DNA of 40,028 nucleotides from Patescibacteria group bacterium (GTDB taxonomy: Bacteria > Patescibacteriota > Microgenomatia > Daviesbacterales > UBA10151): NCBI GenBank assembly GCA_018816815.1, contig JAHIVD010000019.1, positions 1-40,028 of the forward strand, written 5' to 3'. Positions within the stretch are counted from its first letter, which is position 1; each line of letters starts with the position of its first letter. The position numbers and the translations under genes were made by a program. This document shows positions 3,135-28,735 of the stretch, piece after piece. Below the pieces are notes generated by a model that was not told the origin of the DNA, searched no databases, and worked only from the letters and a program-made list of their open reading frames with translations.

Positions 3135-3152
3135 GACTAAATTCTAACATAA

Positions 3153-4163
3153 TCACCTAAAAAGAGTCTCTGCGTACTGCAAATATTCGGGATAGCCACT
3201 GTAGGCCATGAAATACCACCACTCCACGCCCCACAAGTATATCTCATCAAAACCCGTCTTCCTTGCATAATCCAGATAGGATTTCATTTTATCCGACGGG
3301 AATTGTTTTAATTGTTTGTTTAAATTTCGGGTCAAATCCCCGCCTGACAACCACGGTTCTGCCTGCAACTCTACAATGATTGTTTTCTGATTATTAGGGG
3401 CGAAAATTCTCACTATTTGGGATTTTATATTATAGAGATAAGGCAGGAATGGGAAGCTAAAATAACCAATCACCGGATTATAAACAGTCCGGTAAAGGGT
3501 GGTCCCGAAAACATCAGAAGTTTGCATTGGTACAATCCAAGCCCCCGGTTCTCCCGCATCAGAAACAATAATCGTCTTATTGCTTAAACTTTTGACTAGA
3601 TTAATTTCTGTTTTCAAGAATTTTTCATCTCCCGGATCACAATTTTCACCAAAAAATGGTAAAAATGGCTCATTTTCTACTTGCCAGGCCCAAACCGCAG
3701 GATGATCCTTATATTTTTCGACGGTTCTTTGAATAAATTCCAAAAGCCTTTGCTGTCTATCTTGTAGCTTTAAACTTTTTGCCCAAGTAGGAATTTGGCA
3801 TTCGGGCCAACGGGGCTGCTTTTCACCTAAAACCAAGATTACTTTTGCTCCACTCCTACCTGCTTCATCCAGCATAAAATCTACCTCCGAGAAATCATAT
3901 TTACCCTGATCTTTCTCTACAACATCCCAATAACCAGGCACTCTCAAATTCCGAACCTCAAGTTCATCCAGTATCCTAACATAGGTCTTTTTCCAATCTA
4001 GCTTCAAGGAACTGGCGTATCCCGGAGAAAAAGTTACCCCATATTCAATTTTTGAGGGGAATTGATAAGTTGAATTAAAAACAAATTCTCCCAAAAAAAT
4101 CAAAATAATGAAAGAAAAAATTAAGACAATCAGAGTCTTTAAGGCAGATCTAAATTTAGTCAT
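3153..4163 (-). CDS. Membrane-anchored glycoside hydrolase, clan GH-A TIM-barrel type (family uncertain)
   Basis: N-terminal TM helix. WQVENEPF resembles the NEP acid/base motif and VELQAEPW is a candidate nucleophile strand. Confidence 0.5.
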   Translation of the reverse strand: MTKFRSALKTLIVLIFSFIILIFLGEFVFNSTYQFPSKIEYGVTFSPGYASSLKLDWKKTYVRILDELEVRNLRVPGYWDVVEKDQGKYDFSEVDFMLDEAGRSGAKVILVLGEKQPRWPECQIPTWAKSLKLQDRQQRLLEFIQRTVEKYKDHPAVWAWQVENEPFLPFFGENCDPGDEKFLKTEINLVKSLSNKTIIVSDAGEPGAWIVPMQTSDVFGTTLYRTVYNPVIGYFSFPFLPYLYNIKSQIVRIFAPNNQKTIIVELQAEPWLSGGDLTRNLNKQLKQFPSDKMKSYLDYARKTGFDEIYLWGVEWWYFMAYSGYPEYLQYAETLFR

Positions 4164-10336: not shown

Positions 10337-13300
10337 CTAAACGCTCTTTTTCTTCCCGACGATCTTCTCAAACTCATCCCCTTCCAGGGTTTCTTTTTCT
10401 AAAAGTGCTTTAGCAACAGCGTCCAGCTTGACTCTGTGTTTTCTTAAGATATCCTGAGCCGCCTTAAAACAACTATCTGTGATTTTTCTGACTTCGCAGT
10501 CAACTGCATTGTGCAGTTTTGGCGAAAGATCTACCCCTTCTTTCATTCCCCTCCAGATCCCAAACACTGGTCTGGGATTAACATTAATTGGACCTAAACT
10601 GGACATACCATACTCTGTCACCATGTGTCTGGCTATGTTTGTTGCTATTTCAATATCAGATGCTGCACCTGTTGAAATGTCTTTGAATGTCAGCTCCTCT
10701 GCTGCTTGTCCGCCCAAAGCAGCTGTAATCTGTTCTAATAGCCTGGACTTGCTTTCATTAGACCGGTCCTGTGTTGGAGGAAAAAGGGTGTGTCCGCCGG
10801 ATAAACCCCTGGAAATAATCGAAATCCGGTGAAGCGGATCAACTTTTTTAAGAAAATGTCCGACAATTGCATGACCTGCCTCATGATAGGCTGCCAGGTT
10901 TCTATCTTGCTCTGACTGCATCCTTTTCCGCTGTGGTCCTAATTTTTCCTTTGTAGCAGCCTCTTCCAAATCGTGATTATCAATAGCAGTTTTATCCTCT
11001 CTTGCTGCCAAAATTGCTGCTTCATTTAGCATGTTTGCCAAATCAGCACCGGAAAACCCAACAGTTCGTCTGGCTAACTTTCCCGGATCAACATTTTTGG
11101 TAAAAGGCTTACCCTTCATATGCAGTTCAATAATAGCTTTCCGCTCCTGCAGGTCAGGCATACTTACAACAACACGTCTATCAAACCTGCCTGGCCTTAT
11201 AAGTGCTGCATCCAAGAGATCAGGGCGGTTGGTAGCTGCGAGAATTATGACCCGTTCATTAGGAGTAAACCCATCCATTTCTACCAATATCTGGTTTAAA
11301 GTTTGCTCTCTTTCGTCGTGGCCTCCGGAAAATCCCATACCGCGCTGGCGGCCGATTGATTCAATTTCGTCAATAAAAATAATAGACGGAGAATTTTTCT
11401 TAGCTTGTGCAAACATATCACGAACCCTACTATTATGAAGCAGGACTGGTTTTTCTCCTCCAAAAAAAGCCTCATTTTCTACTCCACATAAATCATAAAC
11501 AAAACCATGATACTTTTTCTTAGTAACCTTTTTAACAATTGCTCTTTTAAATTGATTAGGATATTTTGCCTGAGGCAAAAATGGATTAGAAGTTTTACCG
11601 ATAATCAGTGTCCAAAATTCACCATCCGGCAATGGTCTATCCAAAATAATCCTTCCGCCTTTGATCCTTTCATGTTTAATACCTACTTTAATACCATGCA
11701 TTGAACAAAGCCATGCCAATTCTTTGATAAGTTGATGGCTGACTGAAGACATACAGAGTTTACCTGATTTGGTAATATAACCATCACCCCTGGAATAACC
11801 TTCCAGGAAAGCCAGAAAGTACTTTTTGGGTAACAGCCATAAAATCTCCGGTATATGCTTATTATGAGAACCATTACCGCAGAATCTAGCAAAAAACCTG
11901 CCTAAATGGTGAGAATAATAGTTAATTTTTACGCTGTGATCTTTTCTTTCTAAAACTACAGGTTTCACACCAAAAACATCCTCCATTAAATCAATACAAT
12001 CCCCGTAAACTGCTGGTTCGTGTGAACCAAAGGTGAATTCTAAACTACCAGTACCCCTACCTTCAGCAGTGTAAAACCCGAACAATTTCATCAGTTTGCA
12101 GGTTACTGATACTTGATCCGGCAGATTAAGTTTAACTAGCTTCTTTGAAAGGACTTGTGGAAAATGCACGCCTTTTTGCCAATTTAGGACTGTAGTTTGA
12201 CAAACCCCTGTTTCTGAAGCTAACCGGTAAGAGGACGATTTATCTGGATTTTGTAATACAAACTGATGCAAATACTGAATGCTTTCATCGTCTTCCCAGA
12301 AATCTAGAGTAATTTTAGAAGTTTCTTCAAATAAATGAGTTTTTATTCTATGAATGGTTTTTTTAACTACATCATCCCAGTGTTTTACATTTAACGGTAA
12401 CTCTACTAATAAATCTCCTTTTTTAAGTTCGCTTGCTTTTTTAGGCATAATCCCACCATGAGTTCTGACAAAAACAGAATGATCACCTGTTGTTTGTAGT
12501 TTACCCCCTAAATATTCAATATGATAAATTTCCGGAACTTTATGTCTGTAAACTGCTTCTACATCTTTCCAGGCGCTTGATTTAAACACTAATTGCTTAC
12601 CTTTGGTGCCCCGGAAACCATTTTGTTCTTTATCAAAACCTAAAGTTTGAATTCCCTCTGTTTTTTTAACTACACTGTGTTCATTTCCTGTGTAGAACCG
12701 ATCCACAAAATCTTTTATAGGAATTAATCCTATACCATCTTTGTCTTTAATTAAAATAGGTGTATCTCCTGTTACAGAAGCACCTACGCCTACTAACATT
12801 TCCATAAATTCAGATCCTGCTATAGAGTAAAAGGGTACGCCAGCCTCCCCTGCCACGGCTCGTGAAATTAAAGTTTTTCCGGTTCCAGCAGGGCCTACCA
12901 ATAACACCCCTTTGGGAATTCTGGCACCTAAGGCTTTAAATTTTTCCGGAGTTTTTAGAAATTCCACTATCTCAGACAGTTCTTTTTTGGCCTCCTCAGC
13001 TCCTGCCACATCTGTAAATTTGATCTGAGGAGCATCTTTGGAAAAAAGTTTGGCTTTACTTTGGGCAAAAGAAAAAACACCCTGTCCTGCATCACGGGCA
13101 TTCTTAAATAAAAAAACCATTAAACCTACCAGAATCAATATTGGCAAAACCGCAGATAAAATCCCGATCCAGGCTTGCTGAACAGATAAGTCCTTTATTT
13201 CAATAGTAACGGATTTTGGATCAACACCACTTGACTCGAAAATCTTATATATTGACTCACCCTCCTCCTTATGAGAAGTAAGCTTCTTGTCTGAATCTTT

Positions 13301-13552
13301 TACTTCTGCTGTTACCTTATCCCCTTCTATAGAGATTTTTGTCAATTTGTTGTCTTTAACATCAGAAACAATCTGAGAAATTGGCACTTCACTGCTATCA
13401 TCAGTTTTAGGCCCGCCGGAAACCTGATAAAAGAAAATAAGTGCAGCCAAAGCAATTAAGGTATAAACAGCTAAGCCTTTAAAAACTGCTAAAAGCTTTT
13501 TCTTATTTAAGAATTTTTTATTAAAACCGACTCTCTTTCTGCTGTTTGCCAT
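10337..13552 (-). CDS. ftsH: ATP-dependent zinc metalloprotease FtsH, interrupted by an intein
   Basis: TM helices, Walker A (GPAGTGKT), Walker B (IIFIDEIE), second region of homology (PGRFDR) and the HEAGH zinc site are all present. The ORF is 1071 aa; 622 aa remain after removing the insert. Confidence 0.95.
11432..12778 (-). mobile_element. Intein (449 codons) with a LAGLIDADG homing-endonuclease domain
   Basis: It starts with Ser259 (SVTGDTPIL) and has TGDH as a block B candidate. LAGLIDADG-like motifs are [11 protein letters not shown] and [12 protein letters not shown]. It ends VLLHN (Asn707) before Ser708. Joining the exteins restores GVGA|SRVRD. Confidence 0.88.
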
Positions 13553-14781: not shown

Positions 14782-15403
14782 GCTTTCTAGTTTATCATAA
14801 AATTCCCATCAAAGAAATTTTTTATTGTCTCGAAAACGCCCAAGTTTTAGTGCCAGATGTTAAAGAAGGTCTGAACTTTTAAATATAAACAAAATCTCAA
14901 TTTTTAAATTAGACTCACCTCTAAAAAAGATGTGCGAAAATTGATTAAACAAAAGTTTAGATACCTGGCAAGGTATTTTTAAAGAAAGTATTGAATTGAA
15001 AGGAAGGATTGCTAAAAACTGAAGCTTCTAGATTACTGGGATGTAAAGAGTTAGGTAAGAAATTTTGCCTAGCAGATTAAATTCAATGGGGAATTTAAAC
15101 ATTCTGTAATTGGAGCGGAAGGAAAAACTTATACCTAGACATATCAGCCATCTAAGACAAAAGGTGACCCTCAAACAGAAGCTACAACAACTTTTAACCA
15201 TTACCCTAGAAGATATGTTACACAGATTCCTACCATATCCTTGTTTGGCATTAGGTATAAAATACCAACAAACTACATAGATTGCAGGATTCGGGTTTAC
15301 ATAAGAGGTAATAAGGTCTTGCTTAAAAACATGAATAAAAATTTTACAAATTCGTACTGAAGGTTTAACTACTACTTCAGTTTAAAGACAGCCAAATTAG
15401 AGA

Positions 15404-16390
15404 TTATTTGCTGTCTGTTTTATAATAAACCCTAGTTCCTGCTGCGTCTGGATTAAAAGTATTTTTTACCCATAAATCGATTCCAGTCCCCATTAAAGGC
15501 TCTATTGTTTTTGGATACAAAACCCGCGCTCCTGCCATAGCCATCTGATGAGCTCTAACCTGACTTAACTCAGGTATAAACTGGGCATTTGGTTCTTTTC
15601 TTGGATCAGCACTGTAAACTCCATCTACATCAGTCCAAATCCACACTTCATCGGCGTCCAAAACTTTTCCTAAAATTGATGCTGTATAATCAGATCCACC
15701 TCTTCCTAAAGTCGTAGTCTTCCTATATCTAGTAGAACCTATAAACCCAGTGACTATAGGTATTACTCCGTCTGTCACCATAGGCAAAAGTAAATCCCTT
15801 GCATATCTTGCGGTTTTTTCTATATCCGGAGAAGCTTGACCAAAATTATCATCTGTCTCTATGATCTCTGTTGCATCAACGGTCTCAGCAACCAAACCCC
15901 GAGATAATAATTTTGCTTGAACAATCCTAATACTTAATCTTTCTCCATAAGACAAAATCCTGTCTGATTTTTCACTAGTCAATCCTCTTAATTCTGAAGC
16001 ATACTGATAGAGTTCAAAGAAAAGCTCCTCTATTCTAGTATTTAAAGATGTTTTTAAAGGATGCGAAAGATTCAAATTATTCGCTACATCTAAATGACGG
16101 TAAAAAATATCCTCTAGACCCAACTCCAACTCTAATCTTTTCCCGTCTTGGATACACTTTCCAATACCAACTAAACTATCGGTCACTCCTTTGATCGCTG
16201 AAGCTACTACTACCAAGGAGTTTCCTTCTCTTGTGTATCGCTCTATTATTGAGGTTGTCCGTGCAATAGGTATAGGACCCCCTACAGAAGTACCTCCAAA
16301 TTTCATCACCAAAAGCGGTTTTGTTGCTGTTTCCGTATCGCAATCATTCATGAATCCATTTTGCTTTGTTACTAATAATTCTTTTGTCAT
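15404..16390 (-). CDS. Aspartate kinase catalytic (amino-acid kinase) domain only; no ACT regulatory domains
   Basis: KFGGTSVG, LSYGERLS and TTLGRGGSDYTA...WTDVDGVYSADPR are aspartokinase signatures. The ORF stops at 328 aa, right where the ACT domains normally begin. Confidence 0.8.
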   Translation of the reverse strand: MTKELLVTKQNGFMNDCDTETATKPLLVMKFGGTSVGGPIPIARTTSIIERYTREGNSLVVVASAIKGVTDSLVGIGKCIQDGKRLELELGLEDIFYRHLDVANNLNLSHPLKTSLNTRIEELFFELYQYASELRGLTSEKSDRILSYGERLSIRIVQAKLLSRGLVAETVDATEIIETDDNFGQASPDIEKTARYARDLLLPMVTDGVIPIVTGFIGSTRYRKTTTLGRGGSDYTASILGKVLDADEVWIWTDVDGVYSADPRKEPNAQFIPELSQVRAHQMAMAGARVLYPKTIEPLMGTGIDLWVKNTFNPDAAGTRVYYKTDSK

Positions 16391-16404
16391 ATATTTTCTC
16401 CAAT

Positions 16405-16430
16405 AAAAAACCCCTCATCTTGAGAGGTAG
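16405..16430 (-). terminator. Intrinsic-terminator-like hairpin (CCUCUC AAGAU GAGGGG plus U6) 15 nt upstream of the aspartokinase ATG
   Basis: Hand fold of the minus-strand RNA: a 6-bp stem including one G-U pair, then UUUUUUAUU, then the GGAG Shine-Dalgarno and ATG. Confidence 0.45.
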
Positions 16431-16466
16431 TTACCGAAAACGCTTTTATCAAGCGACAACTACCCC

Positions 16467-17510
16467 CTAAATAGGAGTTTTTTTAGTTTTTTTACTTGTT
16501 TTTTGGTTAGCTTTATAAAATTCAGAATCATTATCTTTTGATCGTAACTGTGTTTTTAGTATTCTATCAATTCCTTTTAGGAAACTTAAAGCAATTTTTC
16601 CTAAGTCCTCTATATTGTAACCGCCTTCCTGTACAATCAATGCAGGTAATTTTAATTTAAATATCTCCTGACTTATTTTTTCGTAAAATGGAATAGTAAG
16701 CTTAAATCCGCCAATTGGATCTTTTTCATATGTATCAAATCCAGCAGAAATAACTAAAAAACTTGGATTAAAAACTTGAATACGCTTTAATGTTTGTTTT
16801 AACACACACATATACTGTGCATTTGTTGTTTCAAGAGGAAGCGGAAAATTCTTATTAAATCCCAATCCTTCATCTGATCCTTGTTCGTTTGCAAATCCAC
16901 TACTGTAAGGGAATTTAATATGCGGGTCAGCATGAATAGATATATAGAAAACATCAGACCGATCATAGAAAATGCTTTGTGTTCCGTTTCCATGATGGAA
17001 ATCTATATCAAGAATTGCAACTTTACCGTGTTCCGAAAGATAATTAGCAGCTATTGCAGCATTGTTAAAATAGCAGTATCCTCCCATTGTTTTATGTCCG
17101 GCATGATGACCTGGCGGTCGGCAAAGCGCATAAACCGTTTGTTCGCCTTGGAGAAGATACTTTGCGCCGGTAAGCACTACATCTACTGCAGTTTTTGCTG
17201 CCGTATAAGTCTTATTGGTAATTGGAGTGTATGTGTCCATAATAAAATACGAGGGATAAAGCACCTGGGATTGTTTGAGCTGTGCCGATCTTTTTCTCAA
17301 GAAAGAAACGTATTCTTTTTGGTGTATATCGTGTATATGTTTTATTGAAAAGTGCTTCGGTGGAAAAAATACTGTTAATCCGCTCTCCTTCAAAGCCCTT
17401 AATATAGATGTTATCCGTTCAGCTTTTTCAGCATACGGTTCGCGCCTCCCATCATAAATTTCATAAGGAGGATCATGTTGACTATGTTTATTCGAATAAA
17501 TTATTTTCAT
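16467..17510 (-). CDS. Histone-deacetylase-family zinc deacetylase (acetylpolyamine amidohydrolase-like)
   Basis: RPPGHHA, DIDFHHGNGTQ, SAGFDTYEKDP and QEGGY are canonical arginase/deacetylase-fold HDAC motifs. Confidence 0.9.
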   Translation of the reverse strand: MKIIYSNKHSQHDPPYEIYDGRREPYAEKAERITSILRALKESGLTVFFPPKHFSIKHIHDIHQKEYVSFLRKRSAQLKQSQVLYPSYFIMDTYTPITNKTYTAAKTAVDVVLTGAKYLLQGEQTVYALCRPPGHHAGHKTMGGYCYFNNAAIAANYLSEHGKVAILDIDFHHGNGTQSIFYDRSDVFYISIHADPHIKFPYSSGFANEQGSDEGLGFNKNFPLPLETTNAQYMCVLKQTLKRIQVFNPSFLVISAGFDTYEKDPIGGFKLTIPFYEKISQEIFKLKLPALIVQEGGYNIEDLGKIALSFLKGIDRILKTQLRSKDNDSEFYKANQKTSKKTKKTPI

Positions 17511-17528
17511 ACCATATGGTCCAGATAG

Positions 17529-18566
17529 TTATATTGCCAGTTGTTTTATTGCTTCCGTTTGCATAAAGTCATAATGTTCATGCATTGCTTCTATCGACAA
17601 GTACATAAAGGTAAAGTCTCTGAGCTTGCCTTCTTCTACTAGTTGACCATCCCGTACAAGCGCATTCTGTACCAGAATTTGAGGCGCATTAGTACGCTCA
17701 GGGATACAAAATCCTGCACCATGACCTACCCTATCTGAACGAGACTGAAAATTACATTCTGCATAAATTAAGGGTGAAATATTATTGCGGCGTCTTTGAA
17801 GGTCGGATAATATTTGAGCGTTAAGTACGGCAACCGTTGCTGTCATGAATCCATTTCCTGTGTAACCATCTCTTGTTCTCCACTCTGTACTTTCGACTAA
17901 ATCAAGCTGACCATATGCAGCTGGTATGGACAATAACTCTGCCATTGCAGCACCAATAATTGTCCTGTCGTATTTAATTGCAGCAAACCAAACGTCTCTT
18001 CGGGAACGGGAATCGTATTGATTAGCATCCAATCTTCTTCTCAAATTATCCACTTGATACCGCTTCCAACCAAAAGTTTCACCCCACAAAGAATATACTT
18101 GATTTACTTGATCTTCATGGATTCGGTCAATAAAAGTGTAACCTTGCTGAAGAACTGATCGGATTCTTTCTATCGGCGAAATAATTTCTTCTCTTTGTTT
18201 ACTGACTGCTTTCATCATTACTTCACGAGGAACAATTAACTCTCTTCCTGGGCTGTTATCCGCCAAATACACAAACCAGGAATTATCATCAATAAATTCA
18301 TTTACTGGAAGCGCAACTTCCAGGTATGAATTCAAACCGTTGGTTGAAATATGCTGCATAACAGTTTCGCTAACTAACCCTCTAAAGAGGTTTCTACTGC
18401 TTTTACGCTGATGTCTCCTTCCAATCGCAATAAGCCTTTGGAAATTCTCTTCAAACTCGTTCGGATCAGAAGAATAGATACCATTAACGTAAATCCTGTC
18501 GTATGGTCTTCTTGAAACACCCAATCTGCCTGTGCTTGAAAATATAGCTTCAGTTTCTTTTGTCAT
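17529..18566 (-). CDS. Two-domain protein with a GNAT-like acetyltransferase C-terminal half; N-terminal 150 aa unknown
   Basis: IIGAAMAE...VESTEWRTRDGYTGNGFMTATVAVL looks like GNAT motif A and AECNFQSRSDRVGHGAGF like motif B. By hand count the protein has about 34 Arg and 8 Lys. Confidence 0.45.
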   Translation of the reverse strand: MTKETEAIFSSTGRLGVSRRPYDRIYVNGIYSSDPNEFEENFQRLIAIGRRHQRKSSRNLFRGLVSETVMQHISTNGLNSYLEVALPVNEFIDDNSWFVYLADNSPGRELIVPREVMMKAVSKQREEIISPIERIRSVLQQGYTFIDRIHEDQVNQVYSLWGETFGWKRYQVDNLRRRLDANQYDSRSRRDVWFAAIKYDRTIIGAAMAELLSIPAAYGQLDLVESTEWRTRDGYTGNGFMTATVAVLNAQILSDLQRRRNNISPLIYAECNFQSRSDRVGHGAGFCIPERTNAPQILVQNALVRDGQLVEEGKLRDFTFMYLSIEAMHEHYDFMQTEAIKQLAI

Positions 18567-18598: not shown

Positions 18599-18620
18599 AA
18601 AAAAACCCTCTTTCGAGGGG
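18599..18620 (-). terminator. Intrinsic terminator hairpin (CCCUC GAAA GAGGG plus U7) 33 nt upstream of the GNAT-like gene ATG
   Basis: Hand fold. It also reads as a hairpin plus T-run on the plus strand, so it could act in both directions. Confidence 0.55.
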
Positions 18621-18733
18621 TTTTTGTGCGAAATTTATGGTTTAAATTACGCTACCAATACCCCTCTTTGAACGGTTTTTTGTTTTTTATTAACAGTTGC
18701 TAAACAAAAGACATTATTCATAATAACCATCAA

Positions 18734-18762
18734 ATTATCATAAAAATTTACTCTTTTGTCAA
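18734..18762 (-). promoter_or_regulatory. Sigma70-like promoter: TTGACA, 17-nt spacer, GATAAT
   Basis: -35 at 18757-18762 and -10 at 18734-18739 on the minus strand. This predicts a leader of about 160 nt ahead of the GNAT-like gene. Confidence 0.45.
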
Positions 18763-19059: not shown

Positions 19060-20532
19060 TTATCTTCTATCTGGCAATCTTGAAGATCGTAAGGTCGGAA
19101 AATAAATCACTTGTCTAATATGGGAAGCGTTGGTTAAAAGCATAGTCCACCTGTCAATCGATATGCCAATACCCGCTTGCGGAGGCATGCCATATTCCAA
19201 AGCCCTGATAAAATCTTCATCATATGGCATAGCTTCCATGTCCCCAGCTTGATTCTTCTGTCTTTCCAGTTCAAACCTAGCTTGTTGATCTCTGGGATCA
19301 TTAAGTTCGGTATAGCAATTTGCTGTTTCCATACCGCCAACAAAAAGCTCGAATCTTTCGACTAATTCCGGATTATCTCTATGACGTTTTGCTAAAACAC
19401 TTGTGTCTGCTGGAAAATCCATTACAAAAGTAGGCTGTATTAACTCTTTTTCCCAAAGTTGTTCGAACAATTCCAAACATACAGCCCCCTTCGTAACTCC
19501 TTCAATCTGTAATCCCAATCGTCGACCTGCTCTTTGCAATTCTTCTATAGACGCAGTCTCAGGATGAACACTAAGTTTCTGTCGAATTCCATCATATACG
19601 GTCAACCTTCTCCATGGTTTTGAATAGTCAATTATATGCTCGTTAAAAGGCGCTTCTATACCATGATGGACATATTCTACTATTCCACCCATTAATTCTT
19701 CTGTCATATCCATCATTTTGCGATAATCCCACCAAGGTTTGTACAGTTCTACTTGAGTAAATTCCGGATTGTGAGTTCTATCCATTCCTTCATTCCGGAA
19801 ATCCCTCGAGAATTCAAAAACACCTTCGTAATAACCACCTACGGTCATGCGCTTTAAGGCTAACTCATTGGCAATTCTTAAATAGAAGGCTTGGTTTAAA
19901 GCATTATGATGGGTAATAAACGGTTTCGCATTAGCACCTCCATAAGTTGAATCTAAAATGGGGGTTTCCATTTCTAAACAACCCATATTAAGAAAGTGCT
20001 GTCTCATCTCTTGCACCATTTGTGAACGTATTTTGAATCTATTCCTTGCCTCGGCATCTACTAAAGTATGTAGATATCGTTGTCTCTGTTGAGTCTCAGG
20101 ATCTGCTATGGTATGTGGTGCGACTCTTAAAGCTTTTGCTAGCATTGAAACCTCCTCTGCCCAAACAGATATCTCTCCTGCTTTAGTAGCTTCTAAGATC
20201 CCTGTAGCGCCAATGAAATCGCCTACTCCAAAGTAGTTTCTCACAAACGGGTAAAAATCTTTTAAAACATCTCTTTGTAGTACTACTTGAATAAGTGCAG
20301 ACCCGTCGTCAATATGCGCAAAGGTTAAACCACCGTGCACCCGTTTGGAAAGCATTCTACCTACCGCGCTTACAGTAGATCCGGATAAATCTTCAAAACC
20401 TTCTATGAGTGCAATATTCCTATGCGTCCTTTTTGGCGGTTCTGCAGGAAATGAATTAATACCTGCCTGTTCTAAAAGCTCTACGTGAACTAGTCTTTGC
20501 GAGTACTCTGAAGAATCAGTCTCTGGCGACAT
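19060..20532 (-). CDS. lysS: Lysyl-tRNA synthetase, class II
   Basis: The class IIb core is present: FYLRIANELALKRMTVGGYYEGVFEFSRDFRNEGMDRTHNPEFTQVELY. The N-terminal OB fold and motif 3 region (GIGISIDRW) are also recognisable. Confidence 0.95.
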   Translation of the reverse strand: MSPETDSSEYSQRLVHVELLEQAGINSFPAEPPKRTHRNIALIEGFEDLSGSTVSAVGRMLSKRVHGGLTFAHIDDGSALIQVVLQRDVLKDFYPFVRNYFGVGDFIGATGILEATKAGEISVWAEEVSMLAKALRVAPHTIADPETQQRQRYLHTLVDAEARNRFKIRSQMVQEMRQHFLNMGCLEMETPILDSTYGGANAKPFITHHNALNQAFYLRIANELALKRMTVGGYYEGVFEFSRDFRNEGMDRTHNPEFTQVELYKPWWDYRKMMDMTEELMGGIVEYVHHGIEAPFNEHIIDYSKPWRRLTVYDGIRQKLSVHPETASIEELQRAGRRLGLQIEGVTKGAVCLELFEQLWEKELIQPTFVMDFPADTSVLAKRHRDNPELVERFELFVGGMETANCYTELNDPRDQQARFELERQKNQAGDMEAMPYDEDFIRALEYGMPPQAGIGISIDRWTMLLTNASHIRQVIYFPTLRSSRLPDRR

Positions 20533-21166
20533 ATTGTTTGAAGACAGCTAACATTCCCACCAAATAATCCATTTCCGCAAATCTTACACGACTGATCCGA
20601 GGCTTACCTAAGTAATTATCTAAACAAAGGGTATCAAGTCTGGTTGATCCACCGCTGAGTGTTCCTGGCACCTCATAGTCTCCGCCAGGAAGACTGACAA
20701 AACCCCTAGCAAGAATGGCTGCAGTATCTGTGCTTATACCTTCAAATGGGGTTGCCGGCCTCATGCAGGCAGATAAACTGGTAACTGCTTCTTGATAATT
20801 ATCACTATTCAAAAACGGACCTTCGTTAGGGCTAAAGACTTTTAGCCAAACAGCATGCGGTTGTTCACCCGAGCGATGTTTAATCTTATAAAAAATTCCT
20901 GGATCTAGAGTAATTCCTAGAAGCTCAAGCTGTCTAGCGAATGGAATTCTTTCGTCTACCAATCCCAGCAATGCTCCTTCGGGGGCACTTCCGCAACTTA
21001 CAATATCTTCAATCGCATTTCCGAAAGAGCTTCTGTACTCCGCTGCTTCCATTCCAAGTTCTTGAGGAAAACCTCTTGCTATTCTTGTGCTTATTAAAAA
21101 TTGACAACAATTTCTTGTCTGAGCTTCCGAAGTATAACTAGTTATGTTTAACAATTCTCGAGTCAT
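20516..21166 (-). CDS. Hypothetical 216-aa protein translationally coupled to lysS (17-nt overlap)
   Basis: Long ORF with no motif I recognise, Arg-rich like lysS, and preceded by its own near-consensus promoter. Confidence 0.55.
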   Translation of the reverse strand: MTRELLNITSYTSEAQTRNCCQFLISTRIARGFPQELGMEAAEYRSSFGNAIEDIVSCGSAPEGALLGLVDERIPFARQLELLGITLDPGIFYKIKHRSGEQPHAVWLKVFSPNEGPFLNSDNYQEAVTSLSACMRPATPFEGISTDTAAILARGFVSLPGGDYEVPGTLSGGSTRLDTLCLDNYLGKPRISRVRFAEMDYLVGMLAVFKQYVARD

Positions 21167-24216: not shown

Positions 24217-24476
24217 TTGCGGGGGTGGGAATTGAACCCACTACCTCAAGATTATGCACCTTTCCACATTACTGTAGGGGTAGGACTATATCATCATCCT
24301 TTGACAAACAAAGGGTGCCCAGCGTGTAGTCTCTACGGGGTCCTGATTTAATTAAGACTTCCCTCGGTATTGTCCTTAAAAGAAGGATTTCACCGATATA
24401 GCTAGGTTCTCTTCTAATAATTACTCATTAGAGGGCCCAATTTGAGCCTCGTGTGCAACCGTTACACTTCCCCGCA
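24217..24476 (-). tRNA. tRNA(CAU) gene interrupted by a group I intron; exon 1 is 24445-24476 and exon 2 is 24217-24256
   Basis: The joined exons give a 72-nt cloverleaf: UGCGGGG/CCCCGCA acceptor, GUGU/GCAC D stem, CGAGG/UCUUG anticodon stem, loop CUCAUAA, GUGGG/CCCAC T stem with UUCAAUU loop, discriminator A. Confidence 0.8.
24257..24444 (-). ncRNA. Group I intron (188 nt) inserted between U33 and C34 of the anticodon loop
   Basis: The 5' exon ends in U, which can pair with an internal guide (GAGGCU with GG(C)CCUC, including a U-G wobble). The intron ends in G. The core GUAGAGACUACACGCUGGGCACCC closely resembles the P7/P3/P8 core of bacterial tRNA group I introns as I recall it. Helices UCGGU/ACCGA, UCCUU/AAGGA, GUCUU/AGGAC and CCUUUG/CAAAGG can form. 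Confidence 0.75.
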
Positions 24477-25089: not shown

Positions 25090-25953
25090 ATGGTTTCTTT
25101 GCGCGATACATATCAACAATTCTTAAATCACCTTAAAGAACGCTCCAGAGCTTCAGCTACTATCTTAGCTTATGGCAAAGATATTGATCAACTGGTCAGT
25201 TTTTTGCAGGATTGCGGCAAAACTGAACCCAGTCAAGTTGAAACTGCTGATTTGCAAAACTTTATGGATAAACTTGCCAAAGAAAACTATACTGCAAAAT
25301 CTGTTTCCCGGAAAACAAATTCCACTAAAACCTTTTTCAAATTCCTGAAAACTTCTAATTTAATAAACTCCAATCCTGCAGTTGGTTTGGAGCATCCAAA
25401 ATTTGAGAATAAACCACCTAGAATTTTAACAAAACTAGAGTACCGGAGTCTGCGGGATGCAGCCAGATCTGATACCAGAATATCTGCAGTCATAGAATTG
25501 CTCCTTCAAACCGGCATCAGGATTGGCGAACTAGCAAAGCTGCGGGTTGAAGATATTGATTTGAATAATTTAACTCTTCATGTCCCTTTATTTGAAGATA
25601 CCCGCGAAAGAGTAATACCACTCAACAAATCAGCAGCAGAATTAGTCAAAAATTATCTTCCGAAAAGGACAAAAACCCCAAACCATGCTTTATTTGTTAC
25701 TAAAACCGGAAGACCTCTGCTTATTAGAAATATCAGAACTGCAATTGACAGATACTTTAAAATAGCAGGGATAAAAGAAACCAAGGTTAATGATTTAAGA
25801 CATACTTGGGTAGCGTATCAGCTACAAGCAGGGGTTCCTATAACATTGGTATCAAAATTAGCAGGCCACAAAAGGCTTTCAACAACCGAAAAATATCTCC
25901 AATTCCTTCAAGGCAAAACCAGCGAAGGCAAAGTTAAGCTAGAAGAACTTTAA
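25090..25953 (+). CDS. Tyrosine recombinase, XerC/XerD-like
   Basis: SAM-like N-terminal domain. The catalytic region contains TGIRIGEL, DLRHTWVAYQL and LAGHKRLSTTEKYL, giving the R-H-R-Y set. Confidence 0.85.
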   Translation: MVSLRDTYQQFLNHLKERSRASATILAYGKDIDQLVSFLQDCGKTEPSQVETADLQNFMDKLAKENYTAKSVSRKTNSTKTFFKFLKTSNLINSNPAVGLEHPKFENKPPRILTKLEYRSLRDAARSDTRISAVIELLLQTGIRIGELAKLRVEDIDLNNLTLHVPLFEDTRERVIPLNKSAAELVKNYLPKRTKTPNHALFVTKTGRPLLIRNIRTAIDRYFKIAGIKETKVNDLRHTWVAYQLQAGVPITLVSKLAGHKRLSTTEKYLQFLQGKTSEGKVKLEEL

Positions 25954-25957
25954 AAAC

Positions 25958-26239
25958 TTAAACTGTATAAACTTCCATTCCTTCCTGTACTTCTTCATCA
26001 ACTTTTATACCAAAAGAGTCTCCTTTTTTTACCTCTTCCACTTCTTTATGGTCGATCTGTAAAGACTGAATACTTTGAGTAAACTCTTTTTCTCCTTTTT
26101 TAAATTTAATCTGCTGACCCACCTTTAGAGATCCTGAAGTTAAGTCCAAAACAGCCACGCTTATTTTATCGTAGTAATGTGTAACTTTACCTATTGGAGT
26201 TTTTATTTTTTCATCACCTCCAATCAAAAAACAAACCAA
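25958..26239 (-). CDS. Small EF-Tu domain-2-like beta-barrel protein
   Basis: LKVGQQIKF...IQSLQIDHKEVEEVKKGDSFGIKV matches the translation-factor domain II pattern. The start codon is uncertain (TTG possible). Confidence 0.45.
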   Translation of the reverse strand: MVCFLIGGDEKIKTPIGKVTHYYDKISVAVLDLTSGSLKVGQQIKFKKGEKEFTQSIQSLQIDHKEVEEVKKGDSFGIKVDEEVQEGMEVYTV

Positions 26240-26251
26240 AAATCAATTATG

Positions 26252-26324
26252 TAGGCTCGGCTGGACTTGAACCAGCAACCTATTCTGTATAAGAGAAGCG
26301 CTCTGCCAATTGAGCTACGAGCCT
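26252..26324 (-). tRNA. tRNA-Ile with anticodon UAU
   Basis: Hand-folded cloverleaf: AGGCUCG/CGAGCCU acceptor, U8 A9, GCUC/GAGC D stem, anticodon loop CUUAUAC, GCUGG/CCAGC T stem with UUCAAGU loop, 5-nt variable loop. Positions 27-43 form a C-U mismatch. Confidence 0.8.
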
Positions 26325-26332
26325 GTAAGGAT

Positions 26333-26361
26333 ATTATACAAGGATAAAGTCTAAAGTTCAA
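26333..26361 (-). promoter_or_regulatory. Sigma70-like promoter: TTGAAC, 17-nt spacer, TATAAT, ending 8 nt before the tRNA-Ile(UAU) 5' end
   Basis: -35 at 26356-26361 and -10 at 26333-26338 on the minus strand. Confidence 0.5.
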
Positions 26362-26392
26362 AATACAAAATGATAAATTGCAGTTTAAACTA

Positions 26393-28735
26393 TTACAACC
26401 TGGATCTTAATACTATATCTGCTTCCACCTGAAGGGCATCTCTACCATATTTTAAGCGGGATAATTCTCTGATCGTCTGACCGATTTGAGGATTTAACAT
26501 GGCTTTCCATTTTTTCATATCTTTAGTTGTATCCAAGGAAAAAGGCACAACCGGTTCACCGTTAACAATAGTTTTAATATAGGTATGAGGGGATTCAATA
26601 TTTACCAAATCTGCCTCTGAAAAAGTAGGTGCAAATTCATGCTGCAGGTAATTGGCATCAGTTATGCCCACCCTAAACCCGATAATTGTACCAACGTTTC
26701 CAAAAACAGCGTTTTTCAAATCCTCACCTATCTGACCGATAAATTGGTTAGCCACAATTAAGTTTAATCTATATTTCCTGGCCTCAGAAAGAATATCTGC
26801 AAATGTATCGGTAGCGAAATTTTGAAACTCGTCAACATAAAGGTAAAAATCCCGCCTTTGCTCCATTGGTGTATTGGAACGTGACATGGCAGCAGCCAGC
26901 AGTTTAGGAACTAAAATTAACCCCAGGAAATTAGAGTTTTCCTCCCCTATTCTGCCTTTTGACAAATTCATAATTAATATTTTTCCTTCGTCCATAACTT
27001 TGCGCAGATCAAATGAGGATTTTGATTGACCAATAATATTCCTCATCATTTTATTAGTAACAAATCGACCGAATTTAGACACTGTATAATCTAAAACTTC
27101 TGATTTATGGAAATCTGTGGTTTGAGCAATCTGATCTGTCCAGTAACGCTTCACAACCGGATCAGTAACTCTTGGCAGGAGTTCTTTGACAAAATTGGCA
27201 TCAGTCATAATTCTGACAACCTCCACAAAAGTAGCGCCTGGCGAGCTCATTGCTGTTAACATGGCATTCCTGACACCATGTTCAAATCGCGGCCCAATAA
27301 TTCCTGTTTTATTAGGATCAAAAAGTTTGTACATAAGTCCTATTATCGAAGCTACAACAAAGTGTTTTTGTTCTTCAGCATAGGCTTCCAACATATTTAA
27401 TCCAAAAGGCCGGGTCGTGTCCGAGGGATCAAAATAAATCACATCCTCAGCTCTTTGAGGTGGAATTAACTGCAGCAACTCTTCTGCAGCATCTCCGTGA
27501 GGATCAATAAAACATAAACCTTTACCTGCCATGATATCCTGCAACATCAAGGTCTTAAGTAGTTCTGACTTTCCTGTACCAGTTCTACCGATAATATACA
27601 TATGCTTTCGCCGATCATCTTCTGAAAGGTAAACCGGCCTGTCTACGCCGCGGAAAACAGATCTACCTAAAAATAAGCCACTGCTGGGAATCTTTTCCGG
27701 GGCCGGAGCCCGTTTTGATGAAAGCCAGCTAATGTAAGGTGTTTCAATAGACTTATTTGGAAAATGAAAAATAGAAGCCAGCTCATCAGGTGTTAGAACC
27801 GAAAGCTTAGTAAATCTGGGCATATAACGATAAATAAAATCAGTTAAAAACCCTTTTTTAGAATACACTTTAGCACTGGTGAATGAATTATACGGCCCGC
27901 TAAATTGCTCAAAGGCTGTTTTGATATTGGCCAGATGAGCTTTAGCAGCTGCTTCGGAAGTACTTGAAGTAACAATCCGTAAACTAATATCAAACCCTGG
28001 CTTAGCGATCTTACCCTCAACTGCTTCTAGTTCCTTGGCGTCAGGAGGCGGTTTGGGATTTTTTTCATCCCCTGGCTCTTTTTGTTTTTTCAGCCATTTT
28101 TTAGCTAAATCCTTCCAGGTATTATTTGAAGGCGAAAGCATAAGCTGCACTGCTACTCCCTCGTTTGTCTGCATCTTGGCAAAAGCCGAAGTTAAAGCTG
28201 AAAGAGGATCTGTGGGTAAATCGCGGAAGGTTTTTACTGGAAAATAATCCGCATTCTTTAGTTTCAACTGAACAAAAGCTACCTCCCCTGTCTCGGAAAA
28301 GATATTATATTCCGGAACCTCCTTAATTTCAGCATCAGGATACGCACCGTGAATCTGTTTTTCAATTAAATCCTGATGCTGTTTATAACAAGCCACAAAA
28401 AATCTGATCGATTCATGTAAAGCTACAATCTCAAAAGATAAATGTGGTTGCGGTTTCAAAACAGCCAGCATCCCTCCGGATTTCCGCAACGAAGCAAGAG
28501 TAGCAAAAAGCTGTTCAATTGCATCTATTTTAATTTCATTTCCTCTTGGAACTTTGATTTGCAAAAGCACTAACTGCAGCGACAACTTTTCTCTATCCCT
28601 GTACTTAATCCAATCCACTAAATATTTACGTAAAAAAAGGAAAATACCAACTAGTAACAACAGCAGCCCTAAAACTACAATTACGGCTACAGCCAAACCC
28701 ATAAAATCTATTCCGTTTGTTTGAGTAACTTCCAT
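26393..28735 (-). CDS. Membrane-anchored FtsK/HerA-TraD/VirD4-like P-loop ATPase (type IV coupling-protein-like)
   Basis: N-terminal TM helix, Walker A (GRTGTGKSELL) followed by CFIDPHGD, and Walker B (FYLYVDEFQNF). Confidence 0.7.
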   Translation of the reverse strand: MEVTQTNGIDFMGLAVAVIVVLGLLLLLVGIFLFLRKYLVDWIKYRDREKLSLQLVLLQIKVPRGNEIKIDAIEQLFATLASLRKSGGMLAVLKPQPHLSFEIVALHESIRFFVACYKQHQDLIEKQIHGAYPDAEIKEVPEYNIFSETGEVAFVQLKLKNADYFPVKTFRDLPTDPLSALTSAFAKMQTNEGVAVQLMLSPSNNTWKDLAKKWLKKQKEPGDEKNPKPPPDAKELEAVEGKIAKPGFDISLRIVTSSTSEAAAKAHLANIKTAFEQFSGPYNSFTSAKVYSKKGFLTDFIYRYMPRFTKLSVLTPDELASIFHFPNKSIETPYISWLSSKRAPAPEKIPSSGLFLGRSVFRGVDRPVYLSEDDRRKHMYIIGRTGTGKSELLKTLMLQDIMAGKGLCFIDPHGDAAEELLQLIPPQRAEDVIYFDPSDTTRPFGLNMLEAYAEEQKHFVVASIIGLMYKLFDPNKTGIIGPRFEHGVRNAMLTAMSSPGATFVEVVRIMTDANFVKELLPRVTDPVVKRYWTDQIAQTTDFHKSEVLDYTVSKFGRFVTNKMMRNIIGQSKSSFDLRKVMDEGKILIMNLSKGRIGEENSNFLGLILVPKLLAAAMSRSNTPMEQRRDFYLYVDEFQNFATDTFADILSEARKYRLNLIVANQFIGQIGEDLKNAVFGNVGTIIGFRVGITDANYLQHEFAPTFSEADLVNIESPHTYIKTIVNGEPVVPFSLDTTKDMKKWKAMLNPQIGQTIRELSRLKYGRDALQVEADIVLRSRL

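Follow-up and report, generated by a model that had tools for sequence, protein, structure and literature searches.

A conserved GNAT-fold and deacetylase gene pair behind a predicted lysine-codon attenuator in Patescibacteria

Introduction

The window analysed here, the whole 40,028-nucleotide stretch of contig JAHIVD010000019.1 from a Patescibacteria group bacterium, contains three consecutive minus-strand genes that encode a GNAT-like protein, an HDAC-family deacetylase and an aspartokinase catalytic domain. The sequence-only reading of this DNA had placed the three genes in one operon and proposed a candidate system of acetyl writer, acetyl eraser and carboxylate kinase. The question raised by the locus is whether the three genes form one system and what need the encoded enzymes would serve. 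The open reading frames (ORFs) concerned are the following.

17529..18566, minus strand: gene 1, 345 aa, a two-domain protein with a GNAT fold in the C-terminal part
16467..17510, minus strand: gene 2, 347 aa, an ApaH-like (HDAC-family) Zn deacetylase
15404..16390, minus strand: gene 3, 328 aa, an aspartokinase without ACT domains, the lysC-type catalytic domain alone

All three ORFs were found with exactly the coordinates first given for them, separated by gaps of 18 nt (gene 1 to gene 2) and 76 nt (gene 2 to gene 3). The window is best read as holding parts of a lysine-limitation regulon and not a three-gene system. The conserved element within it is the pair formed by genes 1 and 2, for which a role in supplying lysine is tentatively put forward.

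Conservation of the gene 1-gene 2 pair

The surroundings of gene-1 homologues were compared using 43 fetched locus records, referred to by their labels (L002, L005 and so on), in which genes were mapped by tblastn. Apart from L031, all related loci long enough to hold both genes had gene 2 directly after gene 1 and on its strand. Sequence identities to the window ranged from 29 to 68% for gene 1 and from 45 to 74% for gene 2 in lineages from Microgenomates to Saccharibacteria, the extremes being L005, a Daviesbacteria metagenome-assembled genome and the closest related locus (68 and 74%), and L020 and L021 (29 and 46%). The pair was retained across all sampled lineages of the gene-1 tree. The kinase followed the pair directly only in L005, with L039 as a variant, and the proposal that the trio acts as one system is not supported by this neighbourhood analysis. 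Because the adjacency of genes 1 and 2 is near-universal while the kinase follows only in L005, the conserved unit was taken to be gene 1 plus gene 2. The pairing of a GNAT-like protein with a deacetylase, one element of the sequence-only reading, is thus conserved across Patescibacteria and uncharacterised. A role for trpS, the downstream neighbour of gene 3 beyond a 622-nt ORF-free gap, found no backing, since trpS had no match in any related locus.

A literature search found no description of the pair, of a lysine leader-peptide attenuator or of lysine synthesis in these lineages. The pair is a real and conserved combination of known superfamilies, previously undescribed, in a new regulatory and functional context.

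In the exceptional locus L031 an M23-like ORF comes after gene 1 and an LD-carboxypeptidase gene before it. The M23-like ORF (226 aa, weak Pfam match) occupies the place of the deacetylase there; it also lies beside gene 1 in L027 and is 44% identical between the two loci (L031:350-1414 and 2819-3499, the former locus including the upstream S66 LD-carboxypeptidase; L027:395-1078). M23-like peptidases and LD-carboxypeptidases both act on peptidoglycan peptides. In L028 the leader and cassette are directly preceded by an AMP-binding (Acs-like) gene, a small ORF of CoA-binding type and a PPAT/DPCK-type fusion, CTP_transf_like+DUF359 (L028:1668-4843). The AMP-binding and CoA_binding_2 matches came from a pooled scan and were assigned to L028 by ORF size, only the CTP_transf_like+DUF359 fusion having been scanned singly; the AMP-binding protein is most likely the 584-aa Acs-like ORF.

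Lysine-codon leaders and attenuators

The regions upstream of gene 1 and of the kinase contain the elements of two predicted attenuators.

18734..18762, minus strand: promoter-like site of the gene 1-gene 2 transcript, TTGACA, 17-nt spacer, GATAAT, 11/12 matches
18647..18730, minus strand: leader ORF MVIMNNVFCLATVNKKQKTVQRGVLVA*, with three Lys codons just 5' of the antiterminator arm
18599..18667, minus strand: attenuator RNA before gene 1, in which the arm GAGGGGU (~18660-18666) pairs with CCCCUC
18606-18619, minus strand: alternative terminator hairpin before gene 1, followed by U7 (18599-18605)
16460..16531, minus strand: kinase leader ORF MILNFIKLTKKQVKKLKKLLFRG*, Lys-rich, overlapping the gene-2 3' end in another frame
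16403..16466, minus strand: kinase attenuator, in which the antiterminator pairs GGGGGUAGUUG with CAACUACCUC; minimum free energy -17.5 kcal/mol
16410-16428, minus strand: kinase terminator, followed by U6

As naked RNA, the gene-1 leader adopted the antiterminator fold (-20.6 kcal/mol, z = -3.5, with 0 of 200 shuffles as good). The last Lys codon lies 19 nt from the 3' end of the arm in the window and 19-22 nt in most loci, a spacing at which a ribosome halted at the Lys codons would leave the arm just uncovered. A ribosome terminating at the leader stop codon, 12 nt past the antiterminator arm, would cover the arm and allow the terminator to form.

The same elements recurred, in order, 5' of gene 1 in 23 of the 28 informative loci: a TTGACA/TATAAT promoter, an ORF with tandem Lys codons, a G-rich arm at the end of this ORF or close to it and a CCCCUC-loop-GAGGGG-U6-7 terminator placed just before the gene-1 ribosome-binding site. 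The leader ORFs are 15-28 codons long and carry tandem-Lys ('KKxKK') motifs such as SKKAKKT, NKKQKT, ANKKNLS*, LKAKKT and IKKIKKYLS*. Both AAA and AAG are used for these residues, and the conserved feature is therefore lysine and not a run of A. The design also precedes the kinase in the window, L005, L039, L041 and L042, and the class I lysyl-tRNA synthetase (LysRS) gene in L028; across the ~400 kb of loci the signature was found only before gene 1, aspartokinase or LysRS genes. No Lys leader was present upstream of the lysA-like gene of L003. On the strength of this architecture, the window and its relatives are predicted to carry a leader-peptide transcription attenuator specific for lysine.

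In L005 the kinase has a leader ORF that stands free of other genes (MILNSIKLTKKTTKKALP) and is a homologue of the kinase leader MILNFIKLTKKQVKKLKKLLFRG in the window. The three-gene operon of the sequence-only reading stands in part: genes 1 and 2 belong together, and the kinase is set apart from them by a terminator/antiterminator and a Lys-rich leader ORF of its own. The last ~29 residues of the gene-2 protein (…KANQKTSKKTKKTPI) are peculiar to the window and derive from read-through into this kinase leader region. The L005 orthologue of gene 2 ends at residue 318, with a separate promoter and leader ORF beyond it, and the window has lost that stop.

The predicted attenuator resembles trpL, hisL, thrL, leuL and pheM (before pheST) in having a short ORF rich in the regulatory codon and mutually exclusive antiterminator and terminator folds, and like them it would govern biosynthetic genes and the cognate aminoacyl-tRNA synthetase. 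It differs from them in being specific for lysine, in its occurrence in Patescibacteria and in that one of the window copies overlaps the gene-2 3' end.

Four of the five leaderless loci have instead a divergent ~215-aa protein with an aspartokinase-type ACT domain. Its gene is oriented divergently from the cassette, its ACT domain (ACT_7/ACT_9) is C-terminal and its N-terminal part has no assignment. The protein might be a regulator that senses an amino acid, or it might serve the ACT-less kinase as a separate regulatory subunit.

L016:6260-6913(-), L020:5254-5892(-), L024:960-1601(-), L029:4245-4892(-), L039:2345-2998(-): ~215-aa ACT protein

The class I LysRS gene of L028 is separated from gene 2 by a ~100-aa ORF and a further Lys leader. 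An Rfam scan of the related loci found a T-box and a flavin mononucleotide (FMN) riboswitch alone, both away from the pair; the T-box leader (L016:11883-12173, 100 bits) precedes a 351-aa ORF without a Pfam match, 3 kb downstream of the pair.

Linkage to lysyl-tRNA synthetase

Directly 5' of the cassette the window carries a LysRS gene and a second, overlapping gene.

19060..20532, minus strand: lysS, class II LysRS, 3.3% Lys
20516..21166, minus strand: orf216, 216 aa, no assigned function, overlapping the lysS start, 2.3% Lys, kept 5' of lysS in L005 and L039

The hunch in the sequence-only reading that the neighbourhood of lysS matters was borne out, as a LysRS gene of either class abuts the pair in ~11 of 24 distinct loci. 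Class I and class II LysRS are unrelated enzymes with the same function. The class II gene precedes the pair in the window and L005 and follows it in L023 and L021, with a fusion to B3/4 and DUF2000 domains in L021; the class I gene is downstream in L002, L007, L009, L013, L020, L028 and L036 and is usually B3/4-fused. The LysRS-linked loci are scattered on the gene-1 tree, and L023 (class II) is sister to L002 and L009 (class I) with support of 100/99.

Three of the proteins encoded here are poor in lysine. Gene 1 contains 2.3% Lys (0.3-5.4% among its homologues), lysS 3.3% and orf216 2.3%, compared with a window median of 7.4%. Such low values are expected of proteins that are made during lysine scarcity.

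The B3/4 domain, of the PheRS beta-subunit family, is C-terminal to LysRS of both classes, with DUF2000 added in L021. The same fusion on two unrelated LysRS cores suggests a shared need, perhaps tRNA-Lys proofreading. The protein of the orf216 type (~200-216 aa, lysine-poor) had no family match and was found at window 20516-21166, L005:891-1526 and L039:3101-3715; its overlap with the lysS start in the window is 17 nt.

L002:10070-12331, L020:8162-10543, L021:8153-10828, L041:5072-7330: LysRS-B3/4 fusions

The protein encoded by gene 1

Neither the Pfam and NCBIfam scans nor the sequence and profile searches of the PDB gave a match to gene 1 itself. Acetyltransf_9 of Pfam was matched weakly by 18 of 26 gene-1 family members (best 1.8e-7), the window protein not being among them. 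A model was obtained with AlphaFold2 (AF2) from a 26-sequence alignment, with a pLDDT of 90.7 and a pTM of 0.91. Residues ~140-345 of the model form a full GNAT fold, beta1-alpha1-alpha2-beta2-4-alpha3-beta5-alpha4-beta6-7, with every element present. Foldseek gave 381 PDB matches to the model at E<=1e-3, and the top matches were GNATs with a probability of 1.0 and a TMt of 0.6-0.78, including AAC(6')-Im, Ard1, SpeG, phosphinothricin acetyltransferase and YncA (E = 1e-6 to 1e-5). Of the checks that the sequence-only reading had named for its GNAT-like assignment, structure prediction located the fold (E ~1e-6, probability 1.0), and in the model the C-terminal part is confirmed as a member of the GNAT superfamily by fold. 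The earlier description of a 345-aa protein with a GNAT-like C-terminal half and an unknown N-terminal domain holds on the AF2 and Foldseek results.

Residues 1-135 form an Arg-rich alpha/beta domain that carries most of the invariant arginines of the protein (R20, R24, R58 and R108), R62 being nearly invariant. When this domain was modelled alone (AF2, pLDDT 84), Foldseek gave no match at E<=1e-3; the best match was Arabidopsis NUDT7 (4zbp, E = 9e-3), followed by scattered weak GNAT and methyltransferase matches. Whole-length matches of gene 1 to FemX and to the MprF C-terminal domain were weak (E ~1e-5, TM 0.26-0.30). The acetyl-CoA motif Q/R-x-x-G-x-G/A reads TGNGFM in the window and xGxGLM in the family consensus, with G239 the only invariant residue.

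The initial search gave 130 homologues of gene 1, each 315-420 aa in length. A profile search of 1.84 billion representatives gave 419 cluster representatives, 171 of them at E<1e-30, and all named representatives are Patescibacteria.

The deacetylase encoded by gene 2

The second gene had been assigned to the HDAC/acetylpolyamine-amidohydrolase family, and this identity was confirmed by a match to Hist_deacetyl of Pfam (PF00850, E = 5e-80). The closest solved structures are acetylpolyamine amidohydrolases, 9gkz (E = 3.5e-74) followed by 6phr and 3q9b. Two of these, the Pseudomonas sp. ApaH (PsApaH, 9gkz) and the Mycoplana ramosa ApaH (MrApaH, 3q9b), belong to cluster 4 of Graf et al. 2024 (PMC11532494), with which gene 2 is colinear over its whole length. 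The catalytic set of H135, H136, D168, D170, H172, D259 and Y298, which provides the double His, the Asp-His-Asp zinc site and the Tyr of cluster 4, is invariant in 25 orthologues, and gene 2 is predicted from these residues to be a catalytically intact-looking Zn deacetylase.

Cluster 4 polyamine deacetylases are marked by RPPGHH, EGGY and a gatekeeper Ile (PMC11532494). Gene 2 keeps RPPGHH and EGGY, and contains DPIGG with Ile at the PIS/PEG gatekeeper position (PIG). The cluster 4 enzymes also possess a polyamine-specificity loop, L2, which builds a head-to-head dimer and restricts the active site to polyamines (PMC11532494). Unlike them, gene 2 lacks ~23 residues of this loop (query 76-86 against PsApaH 87-120, and query 73-87 against MrApaH 73-110). 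The loop is missing in all 25 gene-2 orthologues, in which the region is uniformly short, and at the position of the Asp that partners the loop residue Arg95 in trans the sequence is HHAGHK in gene 2 and HHASDV in PsApaH, the Asp being replaced. A further difference from cluster 4 is that the gene-2 enzyme is always paired with the gene-1 family. Because the L2 loop is missing, gene 2 was not filed as a polyamine deacetylase.

The aspartokinase encoded by gene 3

Gene 3 matched AA_kinase (E = 4e-46) and the aspartokinase model TIGR00657 (asp_kinases) with 282.5 bits against a cut-off of 208.7. The match covers model positions 3-287 of 442, which agrees with the sequence-only reading that the kinase stops at the start of the ACT domains. 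Some 45 related kinase clusters of 300-340 aa exist in Daviesbacteria and Levybacteria, and since these are equally short, gene 3 is not a truncation artefact but a member of a conserved clade without ACT. The archaeal ACT-less aspartokinase-like proteins (TIGR02078 'AspKin_pair' and NF006234) likewise consist of a ~330-aa catalytic domain without ACT; gene 3, unlike them, scored under both cut-offs (138.7 against 242.4 and 179.6 against 237). Its nearest ACT-bearing relatives are full-length aspartokinases of Anaerolineae (Chloroflexi) with 47% identity, and because gene 3 is closest to these, its ACT loss is independent of that in the archaeal proteins.

The sequence-only reading had considered the kinase unlikely to serve aspartate-family biosynthesis. 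The loci of relatives speak against this, as they contain aspartate-pathway genes that explain the kinase: its orthologues stand beside hom, a dapF-like gene, a DapE-like M20 gene or LysRS, with a Lys attenuator. The orthologue in L041 adjoins a class I LysRS gene, and that in L039 comes after lysS, a gene-1-like gene and an M20 gene. In L042 and L043 the kinase is divergent from the homoserine dehydrogenase gene (hom), and the locus also has a Mur ligase gene and a dapF-like gene overlapping an M20 deacylase gene. The ACT-less orthologues in L005, L039, L041 and L042 carry the same Lys-codon attenuator as gene 3. The kinase is best read as a classical lysC with its own Lys attenuator. From the missing ACT domains and the presence of the leader we infer that feedback control of the kinase has moved to Lys-tRNA-dependent transcription, which would replace the lost allosteric control.

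Other features of the window

The claim that asd, dap and ectoine genes are absent from the 40-kb window was confirmed, with no asd, dap, hom or ectoine gene among its ORFs. The 622-nt gap 3' of the kinase (14782-15403) contained no ORF of >=60 codons and no ACT ORF, and showed no similarity to the pseudouridine synthase found at the same position in L005 or to the other fetched loci. Among the remaining ORFs of the window are polA, genes for glycosyltransferases and an integrase, and an FtsH gene (10337-13552, minus strand, 1071-aa ORF) split by a large intein that carries a homing-endonuclease-like insert. The tRNA genes around 24262-24454 (minus strand) have a group I intron between them at these positions (Rfam RF00028, 90 bits), and apart from this intron and tRNAs the Rfam scan of the window found nothing else. 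A tyrosine integrase and a 780-aa HerA/TrwB-like ATPase flank tRNA-Ile(UAU) at 25090-28735, and this region may be an integrated element.

Discussion

The function proposed for the pair is a lysine-limitation-induced step of small-molecule N-acetylation and deacetylation that supplies lysine, a reading we prefer while placing it somewhat short of an even chance. It draws in silico on the folds, the catalytic residues, the conservation of the pair, the leader architecture, the linkage to LysRS and the lysine-poor composition, and from these we infer the direction of regulation, acetyl-CoA as donor, the substrate and the pathway. The pair was taken as a lysine-supply step because the genes that an amino-acid attenuator controls usually serve biosynthesis or salvage or encode a synthetase. 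At low levels of charged tRNA-Lys, a ribosome would stall on the leader Lys codons and leave the GAGGGG arm free to pair with CCCCUC; this antiterminator pairing would block the terminator and allow the cassette to be transcribed, in many genomes together with the LysRS gene behind it. When Lys-tRNA is plentiful, the ribosome would reach the leader stop and cover the arm, and the terminator would form. The GNAT enzyme would then acetylate the amino group of a lysine precursor or a lysine-like compound from acetyl-CoA, and the deacetylase would later strip the acetyl group.

The most specific form of this proposal, on balance somewhat unlikely, has the GNAT and HDAC enzymes of the pair as non-orthologous counterparts of those in the acyl branch of the diaminopimelate (DAP) pathway (DapD/H-DapE). 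In this version N-acetyl-2-amino-6-oxopimelate would be formed from tetrahydrodipicolinate, an aminotransferase with its gene elsewhere would give N-acetyl-LL-DAP, and deacetylation would yield LL-DAP. To our knowledge the DAP acyl branch is the sole stage of a lysine pathway that uses an N-acyltransferase and a deacylase. In the proposed role both the pair and the known enzymes (DapD/DapH with DapE/YkuR of the M20 family) would bracket a transamination, and in both cases lysine-responsive control is shared with lysC and sometimes with lysA; a lysA-like gene is found 3 kb from the pair in L003. The variant locus L039 has the syntenic cluster orf204-decarboxylase-lysS-X-Y-AK, in which X is a distant gene-1 homologue of the same length (hidden Markov model E = 7.5e-15) and Y is an M20 deacylase of the ArgE/DapE family (TIGR01910, 158.8 bits, under the cut-off of 217.6). 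The L042 locus, which contains hom and the kinase, has an orthologue of Y with 51% identity whose gene shares one base with a dapF-like gene, so that the gene-1-like protein of L039 is partnered by a DapE-like protein whose orthologue is coupled to a dapF-like gene. There are also clear differences. DapD and DapH are left-handed beta-helix proteins, unlike the GNAT fold and extra domain of gene 1, and DapE is an M20 enzyme, unlike the HDAC fold of gene 2, with only the L039 variant having an M20 partner. The DAP acyl branch is under lysine control through the L-box riboswitch in other bacteria, while the sensor here is a Lys-codon leader peptide. The likeness would thus be one of function and not of membership. 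No dapA, dapB or aminotransferase gene lies near the pair.

The decarboxylase gene of the L039 cluster encodes a 487-aa protein of the Orn/Lys/Arg decarboxylase family (OKR_DC_1; L039:3722-5185), lies between the orf216 homologue and lysS, and might stand in for lysA or make cadaverine.

Several observations weigh against a lysine-supply step of this kind. In ~26 neighbourhoods no dapA, dapB, asd or aminotransferase gene adjoins the pair, and we know of no HDAC-fold enzyme that deacylates an N-alpha-acyl amino acid. In L038 the HDAC gene co-occurs with an M20 gene that immediately precedes gene 1, and the two types of hydrolase are therefore not simply interchangeable. The pair also occurs in Saccharibacteria, which are generally reported to be without amino-acid biosynthesis. 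Gene 2 itself, whose core has 7.9% Lys, is not depleted in lysine, gene 1 appears to keep its acetyl-CoA motif only in part, and loss of the L2 loop would equally open the gene-2 active site to proteins.

Four other explanations share some of this evidence. The pair could serve lysine salvage and fidelity, with the deacetylase freeing lysine from the N6-acetyl- and N6-acyl-lysines of degraded proteins or peptidoglycan peptides, thereby feeding LysRS and keeping acetyl-lysine off tRNA-Lys, and the GNAT acetylating look-alikes such as ornithine and thialysine that are mischarged at low lysine. Induction by Lys-tRNA limitation, as deduced from the leader, and the link to both LysRS classes would fit such a role, the HDAC fold suits an N6-acetyl-lysine side chain and the polyamine loop is missing. 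The LysRS-B3/4 fusions of many loci hint at tRNA-Lys mischarging, the top structural matches of gene 1 include the amino-acid-analogue acetyltransferases phosphinothricin acetyltransferase, YncA and tabtoxin-resistance protein, and gene 1 is beside the M23-like peptidase gene in L031 and L027, with the LD-carboxypeptidase gene too in L031. Mammalian LysRS is reported to charge N6-acetyl-lysine (PMC11789599). Salvage is nevertheless unlikely, as one operon would encode enzymes that add and remove acetyl groups on similar amines and could thus run a futile cycle, the pair has no transporter or peptidase gene as a regular neighbour, the Foldseek GNAT matches are not substrate-specific and the role given to gene 1 is ad hoc. 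A protein-acetylation switch, in which the GNAT acts on a protein such as LysRS, acetyl-CoA synthetase or some translation factor and the acetyl mark is taken off again by the loop-less ApaH-like enzyme, has a precedent in Bacillus acuABC, a co-transcribed GNAT writer and HDAC-type eraser (PMC13121692). In B. subtilis acuABC controls acetyl-CoA synthetase, and the co-transcription of a GNAT-fold writer with a Zn-dependent HDAC-family eraser is the feature shared with the pair. Without the loop the active site should be more open, some peptides are already substrates of PsApaH (PMC11532494), Acs-like and CoA-synthesis genes adjoin the pair in L028, and the extra N-terminal domain of gene 1 could dock a protein partner. 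However, gene 2 is nearest to ApaH (cluster 4) and HDAC6 and not to AcuC, there is no AcuB-like gene, and gene 1 differs from AcuA in its extra 135-aa domain and in the lack of detectable AcuA-specific similarity. The constant partner is LysRS with a Lys leader instead of acsA, the Acs neighbour being confined to few loci (L028), induction by Lys-tRNA limitation has no obvious logic for such a switch, and in L039 the partner is replaced by an M20 small-molecule deacylase of the ArgE/DapE type, all of which makes the switch decidedly unlikely.

A polyamine cycle of the SpeG and ApaH kind, acting on cadaverine, putrescine or spermidine, is improbable. It would be in keeping with the acetylpolyamine amidohydrolases that are the best solved relatives of gene 2, with the conserved RPPGHH and EGGY motifs and with the recurrence of SpeG among the gene-1 structural matches; L039 has a gene of the Lys/Orn decarboxylase family, and L027 has one of the saccharopine/homospermidine-synthase family at 2.3 kb from the pair. 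The idea of polyamine modification raised in the sequence-only reading is weakened by the deletion of the specificity loop in all 25 orthologues and by the replaced residue at the position of the Asp partner of Arg95, and there is no consistent linkage to polyamine genes. Induction by lysine shortage would also be senseless for a route that first destroys lysine. Least probable is a module based on aminoacyl-tRNA, in which gene 1 is either a FemX/MprF/LysX-like transferase using Lys-tRNA-Lys as donor or a toxin of the TacT/AtaT kind that acetylates Lys-tRNA and has the deacetylase for its antidote. The linkage to LysRS, the weak whole-length matches to FemX and MprF and the LPG_synthase_TM gene near the pair in L003 and L034 can be cited for it, and mycobacterial LysX, a LysRS fused to an MprF domain, provides a precedent for such coupling. 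FemX and MprF have two tandem GNAT-like domains; the N-terminal domain of gene 1, modelled alone, gave no significant GNAT or other match (none at E<=1e-3). It would also make little sense for an enzyme that uses up or inactivates Lys-tRNA to be induced just when Lys-tRNA runs short. HDAC-fold enzymes have no known role on such products. The speculation about a toxin-antitoxin pair fares no better, since PADLOC gave no defence-system or toxin-antitoxin match and a 345-aa protein with vertical inheritance across the candidate phyla radiation (CPR), two domains, an enzyme partner and no ribbon-helix-helix (RHH) antitoxin is unlike TacT, AtaT and ItaT, which are GNAT toxins of ~160-180 aa with an RHH antitoxin and a mobile or patchy distribution.

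The preferred lysine-supply reading can be stated more fully as a two-enzyme step, either a GNAT/HDAC replacement of DapD/H and DapE or a new salvage route, within a lineage-wide attenuator regulon that includes both LysRS classes and the ACT-less kinase; in this fuller form it is possible, with the balance leaning against it. Gene 1 defines a new two-domain GNAT family without a Pfam model, and gene 2 defines a type of ApaH deacetylase from which the polyamine-specificity loop has been deleted. The Lys-codon leader is a regulon marker that is usable to assign function to other unknown genes in uncultured bacteria. If the deacetylase does act on N-acetyl-DAP or acetyl-lysine, the chemistry of the HDAC fold would be extended, and if the pair does replace DapD and DapE, a pathway targeted in the search for antibacterials would offer a new example of non-orthologous displacement. 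CPR bacteria, the Patescibacteria, are usually described as host-dependent and without amino-acid metabolism, and a conserved, LysRS-linked cassette that is apparently induced when lysine is short suggests that they have an unrecognised means of obtaining or protecting lysine.

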